The translations under genes and the position numbers were made by a program. This document shows, one piece after another, positions 1 through 52,417 of a stretch of 64,000 nucleotides of DNA (positions are counted from its first letter, which is position 1; the number at the start of each line of letters is the position of its first letter). The notes under the pieces are model-generated. The model was not told the DNA's origin and made no database searches. It saw nothing but the letters and a program-made list of their open reading frames with translations. Origin of the DNA: an uncultured Erysipelotrichaceae bacterium (lineage in GTDB: Bacteria > Bacillota_I > Bacilli_A > RFN20 > CAG-826); NCBI GenBank assembly GCA_902802905.1, contig CADCNT010000003.1, forward strand, positions 24,354 to 88,353, given 5' to 3'.

Positions 1-1802
1 TCACCTTTGGAACGGGAGCGATGAAATGTACACCTGCTCATGATCCAAATGACTTTAATATTGGTAAAAAATATGGCTTAGAAATGCCAACCATCTTTAA
101 TAAAGATGCCACAATGAATGAGAAGTGCGGCAAATATCAAGGTTTAGACCGCTTTGTCTGTAGAGAAAAGCTCATTGAAGATATCAAGAGTCGTGGAGAC
201 TTTATCAAGCAAGAAAAGATTATTCACGCGGTTGGCCATTCGCAAAGAAATAACTGTGTAGTGGAGCCAATGCTTTCTAAACAATGGTTTGTGAAAATGA
301 AACCACTCGCTGAAGAATCAATCAAAAACCAGCAAGGTAAAGATAGAGTTAATTTTGTTCCTCAAAGATTTGAAAACACCTTCCTTCAATGGATGAATAA
401 CATCGAAGATTGGTGCATATCTCGTCAATTATGGTGGGGACACAGAATTCCTGCCTATTACCATAAGGTAACCGGTGAAGTCGTGGTCAGCGAAAACCCA
501 CCAAAAGATATGGAAAACTATGTCCAAGATAATGATGTCTTAGACACATGGTTCTCTAGTGGTTTATGGCCATTTTCCACAATGGGTTGGCCAGAAAAGA
601 CTGATGATTTAGAAAGGTATTTCCCAACCAGCTGCTTAGTTACAGCATACGATATTATCTTCTTCTGGGTTTCTAGAATGATTTTCCAATCTTTAAATAT
701 TACTCATAGAAAACCATTTGATGATGTAGTTATCCATGGCTTAGTGCGTGACGAACTCGGTAGAAAAATGTCGAAGTCTTTAGGTAACGGAGTAGACCCA
801 ATAGAGGTTATTGATCAATATGGTGTTGATGCACTTAGATATTTCTTAACTACTAACTCCACACCTGGACAAGACATGAGATATATTGAAGAAAAAGTGC
901 AAAGTAGTGCTAATTATTTAAACAAGATTTGGAACTCAGCTCGCTATGTTTTAAGCTCAATTCCAGAAGGATTTGTAGAGGTCAAATTATCTAAAGATAA
1001 TTTATCTAACTTAGATAAGTGGCTCCTTAATCGTTTGATGATCACTATTAAGAATGTTACTAACAACATGGAGAAATATGATTTCAACGCTGCTAGTAAC
1101 CACTTATATAACTTTGTTTATGATGATTTCTGCTCACAATATTTAGAGATGAGTAAGGTTAAATTAAACGAAGAAGGATTATCACGTGATGTCACACGTA
1201 CCGTCTTATTAAAAACGCTTAAAACTATCATTCTTCTTATTTACCCATACACCCCATTTATTGCTGAAGAATTATACTTAAATCTACCAAACCACTTAGA
1301 AAGTGTAATGCTTGAAAGTTATCCAAAAGTGGAGAAAGAATTCTTGAGTGAAGACGGCAAAGAAGAAATGGATTTAATCTTTGATATCATTAGAGAAGTC
1401 CGTAACTATAAAATAGTTAATTCTTTGGCTCCTAACGCTAAACTTGGATTAAGTATCAATCTAAAGATTATAGTTAGTAGTGACTTTGCTTTATTAGTAA
1501 AAAGATTTACATTCTCTGATTTTGATATAGTGGATGATATGTCTTCTTTAAAAGGCGAATTATTCACATTTGACTATGGTTCAATGATGATCACCTCTGG
1601 AGTCAATAAAGATGAAATGAAAGAGAAATTAGAAAAAGAAATTGCTTTCGACAAGAGCGCAATTGCTCGTTCTGAAAACATGCTCAACAATCCAAACTTC
1701 ATCGCTAAAGCTCCAAAAGAAAAGGTGGAAAGTGAGAAAGCAAAACTCGAGCTTCACCTTGCTAAACTTAAAGAACTTGAAGAAAAGTTAAAAAATATTT
1801 AA
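1..1802 (+). CDS. valS: Valine--tRNA ligase, 3' portion (5' end lies outside the window)
   Basis: The frame is open to the window start (codons from nt 3: TFGTGAMKCTPAHDPNDF). KMSKS motif (RKMSKSLGN) is present. C-terminal coiled-coil tail is typical of ValRS. Confidence 0.95.
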   Translation, partial: TFGTGAMKCTPAHDPNDFNIGKKYGLEMPTIFNKDATMNEKCGKYQGLDRFVCREKLIEDIKSRGDFIKQEKIIHAVGHSQRNNCVVEPMLSKQWFVKMKPLAEESIKNQQGKDRVNFVPQRFENTFLQWMNNIEDWCISRQLWWGHRIPAYYHKVTGEVVVSENPPKDMENYVQDNDVLDTWFSSGLWPFSTMGWPEKTDDLERYFPTSCLVTAYDIIFFWVSRMIFQSLNITHRKPFDDVVIHGLVRDELGRKMSKSLGNGVDPIEVIDQYGVDALRYFLTTNSTPGQDMRYIEEKVQSSANYLNKIWNSARYVLSSIPEGFVEVKLSKDNLSNLDKWLLNRLMITIKNVTNNMEKYDFNAASNHLYNFVYDDFCSQYLEMSKVKLNEEGLSRDVTRTVLLKTLKTIILLIYPYTPFIAEELYLNLPNHLESVMLESYPKVEKEFLSEDGKEEMDLIFDIIREVRNYKIVNSLAPNAKLGLSINLKIIVSSDFALLVKRFTFSDFDIVDDMSSLKGELFTFDYGSMMITSGVNKDEMKEKLEKEIAFDKSAIARSENMLNNPNFIAKAPKEKVESEKAKLELHLAKLKELEEKLKNI

Positions 1803-1808
1803 TCAGTT

Positions 1809-1836
1809 AGACCTGCATTGCAGGTCTTTCTTTTTT
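1809..1836 (+). terminator. Rho-independent terminator of valS
   Basis: Hairpin AGACCTGC-ATT-GCAGGTCT followed by TTCTTTTTT, 7 nt after the valS stop. Confidence 0.75.
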
Positions 1837-1842
1837 CTAATT

Positions 1843-1904
1843 CACTTTTGAAAAATTTTTTAGCAAATTTTGAAAAAAATCGCCTCTTTATTATATGAGG
1901 GGGG
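1843..1904 (+). promoter_or_regulatory. Conserved promoter-like element, copy A (partner at 52439-52499 on the minus strand)
   Basis: About 60 nt nearly identical to the reverse complement of 52439-52499, with a ~42-nt identical core. It contains TTTTGAAAAA twice at 22-bp spacing (1846-1855, 1868-1877), TTGAAA (1870-1875), a 16-nt spacer and TATATG (1892-1897). Confidence 0.5.
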
Positions 1905-1973
1905 AATTCTATCCTCGATTATTATTGGCATTGTGAAACTCCTTATAAATTCTCCCCTCAGGAGGTACAAAAA

Positions 1974-2156
1974 ATGAAATATGAATTACTTTCTGAACAA
2001 GAAATGGAAAATCAAGTTAGTGGTGAAGCCTTAACTTTAACCGCAGTGATGGCGGTACTTGCGACAGCGATTATTGCCGTCATTGTCTATCGTATGTTCA
2101 TGTCTGACAAAGGGAGCGCAACCGTTCCTGGTGGTTGGAAATTCTCTTGGAATTAA
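1974..2156 (+). CDS. Small membrane-active peptide/protein with a double-glycine-like leader (60 aa)
   Basis: Strong SD AGGAGG lies 8 nt upstream of the ATG. The N-terminus MKYELLSEQEMENQVSG resembles an LSxxELxxIxGG leader. It has one hydrophobic helix and a GGWKFSWN tail. Its stop overlaps the radC ATG (TAATG). Confidence 0.6.
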   Translation: MKYELLSEQEMENQVSGEALTLTAVMAVLATAIIAVIVYRMFMSDKGSATVPGGWKFSWN

Positions 2157-2833
2157 TGGGCATTATTAAATCATTGCCTACACTTGAGCGCCCACGCGAA
2201 AAGGCGCTCAGGTATGGTTTAGATGAATTGAGCGATTATGAACTATTAGCGATCCTTCTTGGCAGTGGTTATAAAGGGGAAAATGTCATGGAGCTCGCCT
2301 TTAGTTTACTAAGTAAATATGGGGGATTAGAAAATCTAACAAACATACCTTTTTCAGAACTAAAAAAGAACAAAGGAATTAAAAATGCGAAAGCGCTTAA
2401 TCTAGAAGCGATATTCGAATTTCATCGACGCTTACTATTTAAAAAGTATGAGCAAAATGATGAAATAATTGATGCAGAGTATTTATTTAATAAATACTTT
2501 CCTATATTTGGGAGAGCAAATCAGGAGCAAATTGTCATCGTTATTTTGTCTAAATATAAAAAGATAATTCATGAGTCAATTCTTTTCAAAGGCGGTGAAG
2601 ATGGGGTTCAGATTTCTCTTAGTGAGATTATTAAAGAAGTGATGTCTTATGGGGGCAAATATTTCTATCTGATTCATAACCATCCAAATGGCAGTCACGA
2701 GCCTAGTAAACAAGACACAATGGCCACTAGTTATCTCTTTGCTGAGAGTCGAAGAATGAAGATTCCAATGTTAGATCACATCATCATATCTATAAATGGG
2801 TATTATTCATTTAAAAAAATGAAAAAAACTTAG
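2156..2833 (+). CDS. radC: RadC-family JAB/MPN domain protein
   Basis: N-terminal LERPREKALRYG and an HNHPNGSHEPSKQD JAMM-like motif. The start is placed at ATG 2156 (MGIIKSL...), with an alternative in-frame ATG at 2135. Position between valS and rplU matches Bacillus. Confidence 0.85.
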   Translation: MGIIKSLPTLERPREKALRYGLDELSDYELLAILLGSGYKGENVMELAFSLLSKYGGLENLTNIPFSELKKNKGIKNAKALNLEAIFEFHRRLLFKKYEQNDEIIDAEYLFNKYFPIFGRANQEQIVIVILSKYKKIIHESILFKGGEDGVQISLSEIIKEVMSYGGKYFYLIHNHPNGSHEPSKQDTMATSYLFAESRRMKIPMLDHIIISINGYYSFKKMKKT

Positions 2834-2841
2834 ATTTCTTG

Positions 2842-2981
2842 TTGAACTATATTTATAACTTATGTTATATTACTCACGTTGTCGCCTCACTAGCTACAAC
2901 CGCCTAGAAAAGGTTTTATAAAAACCTATGGTTACCTTAATAGCGAGTCCTTAGTGAATTTTAAAAAGAAGGAGGGACATT
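2842..2981 (+). promoter_or_regulatory. rplU operon promoter plus ~100-nt structured leader (possible L21-leader type autoregulatory RNA)
   Basis: TTGAAC (2842-2847), 18-nt spacer, extended -10 TGtTATATT (2863-2871). The leader has a local hairpin AGGTTTT-ATA-AAAACCT and long-range TCACTA/TAGTGA complementarity. Firmicutes carry an L21 leader at this position. Confidence 0.4.
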
Positions 2982-3290
2982 ATGTACGCAATCATCGAAA
3001 CTGGTGGAAAACAAATTCGCGTAGAAGTCGGCGCTAAAATTTTCGTTGAAAAGTTAGACGCTGAAGTTGGTTCAACTGTCACCTTAGACAAAGTTCTCCT
3101 CGTTTGTGACAAAAAAGCAAAAGTCGGAACCCCTTATGTTAAAGGCGCAAATGTAGTTGCTAAAGTTGAAAAACAAGGTAAATCCAAAAAAATTCGTGTT
3201 TTCACCTATAAGAATAAGGCTAACGAAAAACGCTGCTTAGGCCATCGTCAACCTTATACATGTTTAGTCATTGAAAGCATTAACGCTTAA
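2982..3290 (+). CDS. rplU: 50S ribosomal protein bL21
   Basis: [17 protein letters not shown]... is a typical L21 N-terminus. SD GGAGGG lies upstream. Confidence 0.95.
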
Positions 3291-51199: not shown

Positions 51200-52417
51200 T
51201 CATACTATTGAATTGTTACTCACATTTAAATCGAGGCAATGGAGTAGTTTCACTAATTGGTTGTCGAAGTCCTCGCTCTGCGAAGAACATTCGAGCAAAC
51301 GGATGAAATTATCTTTAAGATAAACTGATATACAAAGATAAAAGACAACATAAATCACACTGACGACATGAGATAGAGACATGATGGTAACCGCTGACAT
51401 CAATAAAACGGCAACTTCAATGTAAGAGAAAGTGTTTCTAAATAAACCTAACTGATACGCCGCGTCATGAGTGTTATTCACTACTGCGCGAAATTGAAAT
51501 TGATTGGCTACTGTCTTGATTTTTAGTTCTTCTTCTGCGAGTTCATTGCTCTTTCTTTTATGATAAGGAAGATAAACATAGACATGAATAATGGCTAAAA
51601 CTAGTGCTAAAAGCACATAGATAACATTAATTGCCCCATTCATGACTAAAAGCACTGTCATAAAGATAGAAACTAAAGCCGCATAGATGAAATTAGGAAT
51701 CGTCGACAATGCCACGTAGCGGTATTTTTCTTCAACTTTATAAAATTCGTATAGCTCGCTAGGTTCTACGGTGATTTTATAGTTGAAAATGTTGTCATCC
51801 ATTCTTTTTAAAGCATTAATCAAACCTTTACGAAATATAATTTCGAAGATGAAGAATAACGCAAAGAGAATGATCGGAACGAAGAAATAGGAGCTGGAAT
51901 TAATGAAATAGACAGCAAGCAAAAGTGAAACTCCACTAGCGAGCTGCCAGATAGGAAGAGCGACCTTGTCTTTCTTGCTGATGAAATCAATGGGCTCAAA
52001 ATCACATTCTACGTGCACGTATTCTTGCTCTTTTTCAATAATTAACGCCCGTAAATCCCATTGTTCATATAAAGTATCCAATGGAATCCTTCTTTTTCCA
52101 ACTTCTGGATCATAAACTTTGACATATTTTTTAGTTGCTTTAAGCAAAAGAACACTATGTCTAATTCCTTTGCCTTTATCAAGAGTTATCATAAATGGAA
52201 ATTCTTTACTTCCAATTAACTCCTGCACACTTTTGATTTTGATGCCTAATGTGTTCATATGATATTTTGAAGCAATATCTTTGAGTTCTTTAAAACTGTA
52301 GGCATCTTTCTTTCCGGGTAAGAAAAGATAATTCTTGTCGTGATGATAATTAGCCAACATCATCTTTAGACAAGCAAAGGCACAATCATGTTGGCCGACT
52401 TGAGATATAAAATACAT
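51200..52417 (-). CDS. Peptidase C39 (bacteriocin-processing type) domain fused to a multi-pass membrane domain, with no ABC ATPase domain
   Basis: The N-terminal ~130 aa carry the full C39 signature: Q6/Q9, C12 in GQHDCAFACLKMML, H87 in IRHSVLLL, D103 in VYDPEVG. About 5-6 TM helices follow. The protein ends at 405 aa without Walker motifs. Strong SD AAGGAGG. Confidence 0.75.
   Translation of the reverse strand: MYFISQVGQHDCAFACLKMMLANYHHDKNYLFLPGKKDAYSFKELKDIASKYHMNTLGIKIKSVQELIGSKEFPFMITLDKGKGIRHSVLLLKATKKYVKVYDPEVGKRRIPLDTLYEQWDLRALIIEKEQEYVHVECDFEPIDFISKKDKVALPIWQLASGVSLLLAVYFINSSSYFFVPIILFALFFIFEIIFRKGLINALKRMDDNIFNYKITVEPSELYEFYKVEEKYRYVALSTIPNFIYAALVSIFMTVLLVMNGAINVIYVLLALVLAIIHVYVYLPYHKRKSNELAEEELKIKTVANQFQFRAVVNNTHDAAYQLGLFRNTFSYIEVAVLLMSAVTIMSLSHVVSVIYVVFYLCISVYLKDNFIRLLECSSQSEDFDNQLVKLLHCLDLNVSNNSIV

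Follow-up and report, generated by a model that had tools for sequence, protein, structure and literature searches.

A radC-coupled membrane micro-protein with a putative double-glycine-type leader in uncultured gut Bacilli

What is the short gene that precedes radC in an uncultured Erysipelotrichaceae bacterium, a precursor of an exported peptide or a small membrane protein, and does it work with RadC? The question is raised by a stretch of 64,000 nucleotides (contig CADCNT010000003.1, positions 24,354 to 88,353; hereafter the window), in which a 60-codon open reading frame (ORF) overlaps the start of radC. RadC is among the most widespread bacterial proteins without known function, and it is reportedly 'a misleading name'. 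An earlier note, made from the letters alone, read the ORF product as a peptide with a double-glycine-like leader, perhaps a secreted signal or toxin cut by a C39 protein encoded at 51200-52417, or alternatively a plain small single-pass membrane protein. In the reading favoured here, which is given a probability of about one half, the product is a core membrane micro-protein that acts with RadC and whose leader docks to, and may be cut by, a homologue of the peptidase-containing ABC transporters (PCATs) that has no nucleotide-binding domain (NBD). Export as a diffusible bacteriocin or pheromone is unlikely, because the cargo is the conserved part of the peptide, the gene is a syntenic core gene and no ATPase is encoded in or next to the PCAT homologue.

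The elements from which the argument starts are as follows.

1974-2156, forward strand: gene of the 60-aa micro-protein, ATG start, 60 codons, TAA stop included; product MKYELLSEQEMENQVSGEALTLTAVMAVLATAIIAVIVYRMFMSDKGSATVPGGWKFSWN
1960-1965, forward strand: Shine-Dalgarno (SD) sequence AGGAGG, 8-nt spacer to the ATG at 1974
2154-2158, forward strand: TAATG stop/start overlap (TAA 2154-2156, radC ATG 2156-2158, one base common to both)
2156-2833, forward strand: radC, N-terminal UPF0758/HhH domain followed by a JAB domain, HNHPNGSHEPSKQD motif intact

The ORF with its length, the AGGAGG with its 8-nt spacing and the TAATG overlap are all as the earlier note had described them. Judged by its conservation, the ORF is a genuine gene, well beyond chance expectation, because its length is constant in 204 clusters, relatives are encoded in 198 species genomes, and nonsynonymous differences (pN) are far below synonymous differences (pS). 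A search of 5.8 billion proteins found the 204 protein clusters, nearly all of exactly 60 aa; the 120 of them that were listed range from 100% down to 67% identity. A filter-free HMMER profile scan over 1.84 billion representatives reached ~30% identity and yielded 67 clusters (E <= 1e-3). The genome contigs were scanned, with one genome per prokaryotic species, by a profile made from a narrow alignment of the family, and relatives are encoded in 198 genomes, in which the gene is single-copy, core and syntenic. Conservation of the ORF upstream of radC in relatives, which had been proposed as a check, is borne out by these 198 species genomes. Between four relatives, pN is 0.19-0.23 and pS is 0.50-0.84 (Nei-Gojobori method), and the mean column identity over the whole 60-aa alignment of 30 sequences is 82%.

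All 198 carriers are metagenome-assembled genomes (MAGs) of uncultured 'Bacilli', 'Erysipelotrichaceae' or 'Bacillales bacterium' from rumen, gut and digesters, and one cluster holds a protein from 'Clostridium sp. CAG:288', found on 1000 or more contigs. The source names given to family members are only 'hypothetical protein' and 'unknown'. The peptide and 37 family members have no above-threshold match in Pfam, NCBIfam, PHROGs or the PDB sequences, and the sole matches of the peptide in PHROGs and the PDB are generic transmembrane (TM) helices, such as those of TLR4 and syndecan. The family is unnamed, with the window peptide as its founding member, and is confined to an uncultured Bacilli lineage of gut, rumen and digesters.

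The downstream gene is radC by Pfam (RadC PF04002, 1.8e-24; UPF0758_N PF20582, 3e-24). Its product scores 150.9 bits against TIGR00608, above the cut-off of 133.85, and 175.2 against PRK00024, slightly below the cut-off of 180; the UPF0758 N-terminal HhH domain and the RadC-type JAB domain with HxH...S..D, by which membership is defined, are all present. The HxH...S..D motif is also intact in nearly all peptide-coupled RadCs of the family. radC comes directly after the peptide gene in 83 of 85 distinct junctions, and, counted from the peptide stop, the first possible radC start is at -14 to +6 nt in all 83. Of the junctions, 42 have TAATG or TGATG and 9 have ATGA; in 4 an ATG immediately follows the stop, and in 14 one is found within 1-9 nt. 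The majority of the others have an upstream radC start that overlaps the peptide gene. Co-translation with radC, which the earlier note had called almost certain for the window, is strengthened by this, as the overlap or close junction is a family trait. Because the radC start overlaps the peptide stop, RadC synthesis would depend on translation of the peptide.

Even in distant members radC stays beside the peptide gene though other neighbours change. One locus (L010) has minCD, M23 and M50 genes next to the peptide-radC pair and two others (L095 and L096) have PP2C and patatin genes; the distant peptide P0184 (E 7e-4 to the profile) precedes radC-minC-minD-M23-M50 and has unrelated upstream genes, and P0165 precedes radC amid PP2C, patatin and AddAB-like genes. 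As far as gene order tells, the peptide-radC pairing is the rule in the family, with exceptions that are weighed below.

Signals on both sides delimit the unit in the window.

1809-1827, forward strand: terminator-like hairpin, stem of 8 pairs (5 G-C) and then a T run, 3' of valS
2888-2961, forward strand: L21 leader (RF00559), 40.9 bits against a gathering score of 36, 5' of rplU-ysxB(Prp)-rpmA

The upstream gene, valS, ends at 1802, and the hairpin separates it from the peptide-radC unit. As the L21 leader sits between radC and rplU, rplU forms a separate regulatory unit. Given the terminator-like hairpin on the 5' side and the L21 leader on the 3' side, the transcription unit would consist of the small ORF and radC, and the peptide gene is judged to be the first cistron of a two-gene operon.

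The peptide gene has valS, radC and rplU or minCD as neighbours, and the wider block around it is of housekeeping character (valS, rplU, obg, ruvAB, recJ, relA, hisS, aspS, dnaG, sigA). In the window rplU comes directly after radC (2834-2981), and the small ORF holds the place upstream of radC; in relatives radC is followed by minC-minD-M23-M50 (L010:6851-9676) or by a minC-like gene (L093:6893-7935). The genes maf and mreBCD, which flank radC in Bacillus subtilis, are absent from the lineage studied here. The program-made ORF list puts the radC start at a TTG at 2135 (2135-2833, forward strand, 232 aa). This TTG recurs in relatives because the conserved Ser-Trp codons of the peptide (TCT TGG) create it, and the true radC start is likely to be the ATG at 2156.

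An AlphaFold2 (AF2) model of the peptide, built with 37 family sequences, has a predicted local distance difference test score (pLDDT) of 84 and divides the chain into three parts.

1974-2024, forward strand: leader-like N-terminal segment, aa 1-17 (conservation profile, AF2, PCAT leader consensus)
2025-2102, forward strand: TM helix, aa 18-43, from E18 to M43 (AF2 helix, pLDDT 93-94; conservation)
2112-2150, forward strand: C-terminal aromatic beta-hairpin, aa 47-59, GSATV-PGG-WKFSW (AF2 strands 47-51 and 55-59)

The predicted fold has a short helix at aa 8-13, a break at 14-17, the long helix at 18-43 and the hairpin, whose turn P52-G53-G54 is invariant among close relatives. In 30 close relatives the invariant residues of the helix are A19, L22, V25, A27, L29, A30, A32, V36, Y39 and F42, and those of the remainder are S44, K46, G47, P52-F57 and W59. 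The TM helix is the best-conserved part of the peptide, and helix and hairpin together, the 'mature' part, are far more conserved than the leader. The positive-inside rule holds that the more positive flank of a TM helix stays cytoplasmic. The mean net charge of the family is -2.1 in the N-terminal tail and +3.0 in the C-terminal tail, and the C-terminal tail is the more positive one in 96% of 226 sequences; by this rule the uncleaved chain is predicted to lie N-out and C-in, with the hairpin in the cytoplasm. The peptide as modelled is a conserved bitopic membrane micro-protein with a single helix.

The leaders of PCAT substrates follow the consensus L(-12)xxxE(-8)L(-7)xxxxG(-2)G(-1) (PMC6959990). 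L(-7) and L(-12) make up a 'hydrophobic knot' together with the peptidase domain, and a short docking helix runs from -10 to -4, where -4 is variable and sets specificity. The specificity for Gly-Gly is put down to a very narrow cleft in the peptidase (PEP) domain of PCAT1, described as admitting Gly-Gly alone (PMC6959990). In the window peptide the register is L6 = -12, S7 = -11, E10 = -8, M11 = -7, S16 = -2 and G17 = -1, so that four of the five consensus positions fit (L6, E10, M11, G17) and S16 stands in place of G(-2); the helix predicted at aa 8-13 spans leader positions -10 to -5.

A leader profile was made from 226 distinct sequences, which were aligned at the TM helix and given weights according to 63 clusters (80% identity). 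Its main peaks are at -12 (L 81%, 3.0 bits), -8 (E 71%, 2.6 bits) and -1 (G 100%, 4.3 bits), with further peaks at -11 (T, S or N) and -7 (L or M, 58%); information is below 1 bit at -3, -5, -6, -9, -13 and -14, and is 1.2 bits at -10. By lineage, G is the commonest residue at -2, yet it reaches only 37% (weighted), the others being V, P, T, S, A, I or F. A Gly-Gly leader is present in 33 of the 226 distinct sequences (for example LSEEEMEEIRGG and LNKEELNAICGG), distant members have textbook double-glycine leaders (MLRKLSEEEMEEIRGG followed by E, MKRQLNKEELNAICGG by A and MRKLNDEELAKISGG by E), and the canonical LSxxELxxIxGG occurs in about a third of the deep sublineages. This pattern suggests that the N-terminal segment is a PCAT-type double-glycine leader whose docking residues are under selection family-wide.

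The double-glycine-like leader claimed by the earlier note therefore stands in part: conservation at L(-12), E(-8), L/M(-7) and G(-1) across the family supports it, whereas G(-2) is found in 37% and is Ser in the window. As to the deviations that the earlier note had flagged, Q(-4) is minor since -4 is a variable position, and Ser(-2) is a real one. The proposed search with leader models went against the claim, as no curated double-glycine model was reached at threshold. In NCBIfam the window peptide comes closest to plantaricin C (E 0.093; 13 bits, where the cut-off is 29), and Pfam gives no match; the 37 members give scattered matches of E 0.001-0.1 (TIGR01847, PF10439, TIGR03949, TIGR04149, TIGR03893), all below threshold, which fall mainly on double-glycine families and lantibiotic leaders.

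Two other kinds of signal, those of type IV prepilins and Flp pilins (G|FTLIE, G|xxxxEY) and GlyGly-CTERM-like sorting signals, were rejected, since the leader is acidic, E at +5 and the EY motif are missing, and neither Pfam nor NCBIfam lends support. The cleaved and uncleaved forms of the micro-protein would be told apart by the following peptides.

Putative cleavage product after G17: 43-mer from E18, with the semi-tryptic marker EALTLTAVMAVLATAIIAVIVYR
Uncleaved form: leader-spanning N-terminal peptide YELLSEQEMENQVSGEALTLTAVMAVLATAIIAVIVYR

If the segment is a leader, the candidate for its recognition is encoded about 50 kb away.

51200-52417, reverse strand: C39-TM protein, candidate partner, 405 aa, C39 peptidase and transmembrane domain, between dnaJ and ybeY

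The product carries a Peptidase_C39 domain (Pfam, E 2.8e-16), as the earlier note had stated, and the catalytic residues Q6, C12, H87 and D103 are intact. They are invariant in 41 sequences of 38-82% identity, and the Q/C/H/D set is kept in homologues of 24-32% identity. The AF2 model of the protein (pLDDT 87, predicted template modelling score (pTM) 0.79) matches PCAT1 over the PEP domain and the transmembrane domain (TMD) (6v9z, 4ry2 and others) with E 1e-13 to 1e-10, and the query-normalised template modelling score (TMq) against inward-facing PCAT1 entries is 0.58-0.64 (0.61-0.64 for 6v9z and 4ry2). The chain ends at residue 405, with no nucleotide-binding domain and no ABC_tran match, and no ATPase gene adjoins the C39-TM gene, whose neighbours are dnaJ and ybeY. 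A full PCAT combines a PEP domain, a six-helix exporter TMD and an NBD; on the model, the C39-TM protein is a PCAT homologue without an ATPase domain and not a full PCAT.

All the homologues found are of ~400 aa and bear the NCBI name 'cysteine peptidase family C39 domain-containing protein'. The gene (X) always lies in the order dnaK-dnaJ-(...)-X-ybeY-cdd-era-recO, including in digester and sludge metagenomes and down to 24% identity, and this fixed operon position indicates a core gene passed on by vertical descent, beside which no substrate gene lies. Neither the peptide nor radC occurs within 10 kb of the C39-TM gene in 22 metagenome loci, and in 91 peptide loci the stretch within 6 kb of the peptide is free of C39, ABC and immunity genes. 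A peptide-C39 adjacency suspected from one pair of 5448-bp contigs proved to be a coincidence. No other ORF with a double-glycine leader is present in the 64-kb window, where only spurious in-gene matches were seen.

The two genes share a contig in six genomes, namely the window and those with contigs of 427403, 117404, 83593, 106359 and 94864 bp; the shared contig is deduced from equal lengths of the longest contigs for those of 427403, 117404, 83593 and 106359 bp and is confirmed by the record name for DAOPYW010000001.1. The peptides are of SG type on the 427403-, 117404- and 83593-bp contigs, of TG type on JAZRZI010000021.1 (106359 bp) and of VG type on DAOPYW010000001.1. On the last of these ~54 kb separate the C39 gene (at ~2.8-4.0 kb) from the peptide (near 57.6 kb), as compared with ~50 kb in the window. 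In window-type C39 domains the catalytic Cys is followed by Ala (DCAFAC; window 52381-52383), and within the family sampled as L097-L140 it is followed by Gly (DCGFAC or DCGYAC) in a digester and sludge sublineage (L109, L111, L112). Canonical PCATs have Gly at this place. DAOPYW010000001.1, the sole linked case, pairs DCGFAC with a VG peptide.

In the favoured reading, the leader (aa 1-17) would bind the C39 domain of this protein, which is the only conserved PCAT homologue of the lineage. In Gly-Gly lineages the leader would probably be removed, so that a membrane-embedded peptide of 43 aa is left; with Ser at -2, as in the window organism, cleavage is uncertain, and both docking without cleavage and cleavage by a co-adapted cleft are possible. 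Helix and hairpin would stay in the membrane of the producer and act with the co-translated RadC, for example by tethering or regulating it. RadC, a plausible partner in this, emerges from the same ribosome and mRNA.

Several findings weigh against this reading. Position -2 is Ser in the window and S, V, T, A, P, I or F in most members, despite the narrow Gly-Gly cleft, and because that cleft is so narrow, cleavage after SG, and above all after VG or PG, by a canonical C39 domain is doubtful. Catalytically intact C39 proteins coexist with VG- and TG-type peptides, so that the peptide may not be a substrate of the C39-TM protein or may go uncleaved. Co-occurrence of the two genes is seen in six genomes only, none with a GG-type peptide, and would be expected without any functional link because both are core genes of one lineage. 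In the predicted N-out topology, a leader that is not cut off would lie across the membrane from a cytoplasmic peptidase domain. An association of Gly-Gly with a hydrophobic residue at -4 has a raw p of 3e-10 and falls to p = 0.07-0.2 after relatives are clustered; it was not used as evidence.

The coupling to RadC also has its exceptions. In two loci (L062:5992-6165 and L063:1042-1215) the peptide is followed by a minC-like gene and minD, with no radC, and in two others (L067 and L068, 5971-6588) the downstream ORF encodes a JAB remnant of 139 aa, from which HxH and the N-terminal domain are missing. As all four genomes keep an intact peptide, an adjacent active RadC is not obligatory for it.

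Much of this evidence would be met by a plain small membrane protein that is never cleaved, lies N-out and C-in with an acidic amphipathic N-terminal tail outside, resembles a leader without functional consequence, and serves as an anchor or partner of RadC or has an independent membrane role, the C39-TM protein then having other substrates. Such a protein is possible, though on balance doubtful. It agrees with the charge asymmetry, which predicts the N-out, C-in orientation in 96% of members; with the freedom of -2 to vary, even to V, P, I and F; with the concentration of most conservation in the TM helix and C-terminal hairpin; and with the absence of a nearby C39 gene and of any curated leader model at threshold. 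It leaves unaccounted for why an otherwise variable N-terminal tail is conserved at L(-12), E(-8), L/M(-7) and G(-1), in the exact spacing of PCAT leaders, why a textbook LSxxELxxIxGG occurs in a third of deep lineages, and why a PCAT-like protein with intact catalytic residues and no adjacent substrate gene is co-inherited. The fallback of the earlier note, a small single-pass membrane protein, is closer to the truth than secretion, but the leader-type conservation suggests more than a plain protein of this kind.

A more elaborate and rather speculative possibility is that a bacteriocin-export module has been domesticated: the ATPase-less PCAT would cleave or hold the leader and free the helix sideways into the cell's own membrane, and the hairpin would recruit RadC. 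If true, this would be the first pair of a double-glycine leader and a PCAT in core membrane protein biogenesis, and RadC would for the first time have a physical partner, along with a place at the membrane.

The secreted signal or toxin of the earlier note is not borne out. A class II bacteriocin-like toxin or ComC-like pheromone precursor, cut after SG by the C39 protein and released, would explain the leader-like N-terminus with its weak matches to bacteriocin leader families, and its hydrophobic, cationic, Trp-rich cargo would resemble membrane-active peptides. radC does belong to the streptococcal SigX regulon and is a core member of streptococcal competence regulons, so that the link between radC and competence drawn by the earlier note is real for those regulons; the accounts of them that were consulted on radC make no mention of a peptide upstream of it. 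The cargo is nearly invariant in ~200 species, whereas bacteriocins and pheromones diversify, and it is the best-conserved region of the product of a single-copy gene with fixed synteny in a housekeeping block. Immunity, ABC, histidine-kinase and response-regulator genes are absent from its vicinity, the PCAT homologue has no ATPase domain to power export, and the 43-mer, being essentially one TM helix, would partition into the producer's own membrane. Release of such a peptide is accordingly very improbable.

The 5' untranslated region (5'UTR) bears on both the expression of the operon and a further alternative. Its elements in the window are listed below.

1870-1897, forward strand: promoter-like TTGAAA-16 nt-TATATG, read from the sequence; likely mRNA 5' end inferred at or near G1897
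1897-1959, forward strand: long-range 5'UTR stem, 5' arm GAGGGGGGAATT (1897-1908) and 3' arm AATTCTCCCCTC (1948-1959) beside the SD, from the minimum-free-energy fold
1940-1944, forward strand: anti-SD element CUCCU, predicted to pair with the SD in transcripts that lack the 5' arm of the long stem

The program-made promoter scan did not list the TTGAAA/TATATG region; a motif TATA(T/A)..(A/G)TGAGGGG recurs 5' of the gene in relatives. The arms of the long stem show compensatory changes in three of these (GAGGGGCCAAAC/GTTTGGTCCCTC in L005, GAGAGGGGTAG/CTACCCCTCTC in L017 and GAGGGGCCC/GGGCCCCTC in L020), and the folding energy of the 5'UTR is not significant on its z-score alone (-0.51). The predicted pairing probability of the SD is 0.08 if the transcript begins at 1897, and a beginning at 1915 or 1930 gives 0.80-0.81. 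Its median in the family is 0.99, as compared with 0.59 for other GGAGG genes of the same loci (p = 1e-20), and of 70 distinct loci 45 have an anti-SD hexamer no more than 30 nt upstream, as against 4 of 202 other GGAGG-ATG genes of these loci. Among the upstream regions L005-L091, most lineages have an SD-sequestering CCTCC...GGAGG hairpin and the window clade has the long-range stem that would free the SD. An Rfam scan of 1750-3050 gave no match in the 5'UTR and only the L21 leader before rplU. These features suggest translational control through a structured 5'UTR, and this control would reach the whole peptide-radC operon because radC depends on the coupling.

This raises the idea that the ORF is itself a regulatory device, either an upstream ORF that gates radC translation or an element like a type I toxin, silenced by mRNA structure. 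The frequent predicted pairing of the SD, far above that in neighbouring genes, the two-state 5'UTR of the window and the stop/start overlap that makes radC dependent on the ORF would all suit it. However, purifying selection covers all 60 aa rather than a short stalling motif, the peptide is kept where radC is missing, and the gene is, unlike type I toxins, a single-copy core gene in whose 5'UTR Rfam finds nothing, which leaves this idea with very little probability.

JAB/MPN+ metalloproteases cut after the C-terminal Gly-Gly of ubiquitin-like proteins. That RadC itself cuts the peptide after the invariant G17 is the least credible account: the coupling to a JAB-domain protein with HxH...S..D intact in nearly all cases, and the invariance of G(-1) beside a varying -2, which fits C39 enzymes poorly, speak for it, but RadC-family JAB domains reportedly have no groove for a ubiquitin tail and are likelier to be nucleic-acid enzymes (PMC5512222), the conserved leader positions are those of C39 ligands and not of ubiquitin tails, and the peptide is intact where RadC is absent (L062/L063) or has no HxH (L067/L068).

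Returning to the core membrane micro-protein favoured here, a micro-protein welded to radC in ~200 species offers a concrete, testable partner for RadC. To our knowledge, leaders of the double-glycine type and their PCATs have so far been met solely with secreted bacteriocins, pheromones and toxins. Here the genes of a peptide with such a leader and of a PCAT homologue without ATPase are both vertically inherited core genes in housekeeping operons, which suggests that this recognition system can be reused for the maturation of intracellular or membrane proteins. What is new is the combination of a double-glycine-leader-type peptide and a PCAT-like peptidase in an unprecedented, RadC-linked housekeeping setting; searches of the open-access literature found neither a peptide described as coupled to radC nor a PCAT that lacks its NBD and is encoded in a housekeeping operon. 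The hosts are uncultured, but the proteins are short enough to be synthesised and assayed in vitro, and family members come from a common human-gut organism (Clostridium sp. CAG:288) and from many rumen MAGs.

Several known systems resemble the micro-protein in part. Like the type I toxins Hok, TisB, Fst and BsrG, it is a small hydrophobic peptide with a single TM helix whose SD is predicted to be sequestered by the 5'UTR. Type I toxins have a cis-encoded antisense RNA and are often multi-copy and strain-variable; the micro-protein gene, by contrast, belongs to the single-copy core, is highly conserved and coupled to a downstream housekeeping gene, and is not known to have an antisense RNA, though none was looked for. 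With the major coat proteins of Pf3 and M13 and with partners of the AcrZ/KdpF type it shares a size of ~45-60 aa, an acidic N-terminal tail, one TM helix and a basic aromatic C-terminal tail, and, like AcrZ/KdpF-type small proteins, it is co-expressed with a larger partner from the same operon. The PHROGs and PDB searches showed no sequence homology to any of these, however; its gene is chromosomal and syntenic, and its partner would be a soluble JAB/HhH protein.

The closest likeness of the N-terminal segment is to double-glycine-leader peptides (ComC/BlpC, class II bacteriocins, and CtA of PCAT1), which have a similar leader of 15-20 aa with L(-12), S/T(-11), E(-8), L/M(-7) and G(-1) and a helix from -10 to -5. 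Many family members share the full LSxxELxxIxGG. A C39 PCAT homologue is encoded in genomes that carry the peptide. The micro-protein family differs from them in having no conserved G(-2), with Ser in the window, in a cargo that is more conserved than the leader and consists of a single TM helix and a hairpin, and in scores below the threshold of the curated models. Its gene lies in a radC-coupled housekeeping operon far from the peptidase gene and without immunity or regulatory genes. The C39-TM protein, in turn, shares with PCAT1, ComA and LahT the Q/C/H/D set of the PEP domain and a TMD of the ABC-exporter type that superposes on PCAT1, whereas it has no NBD and is encoded by a core gene of a housekeeping operon rather than of a bacteriocin or quorum-sensing locus.

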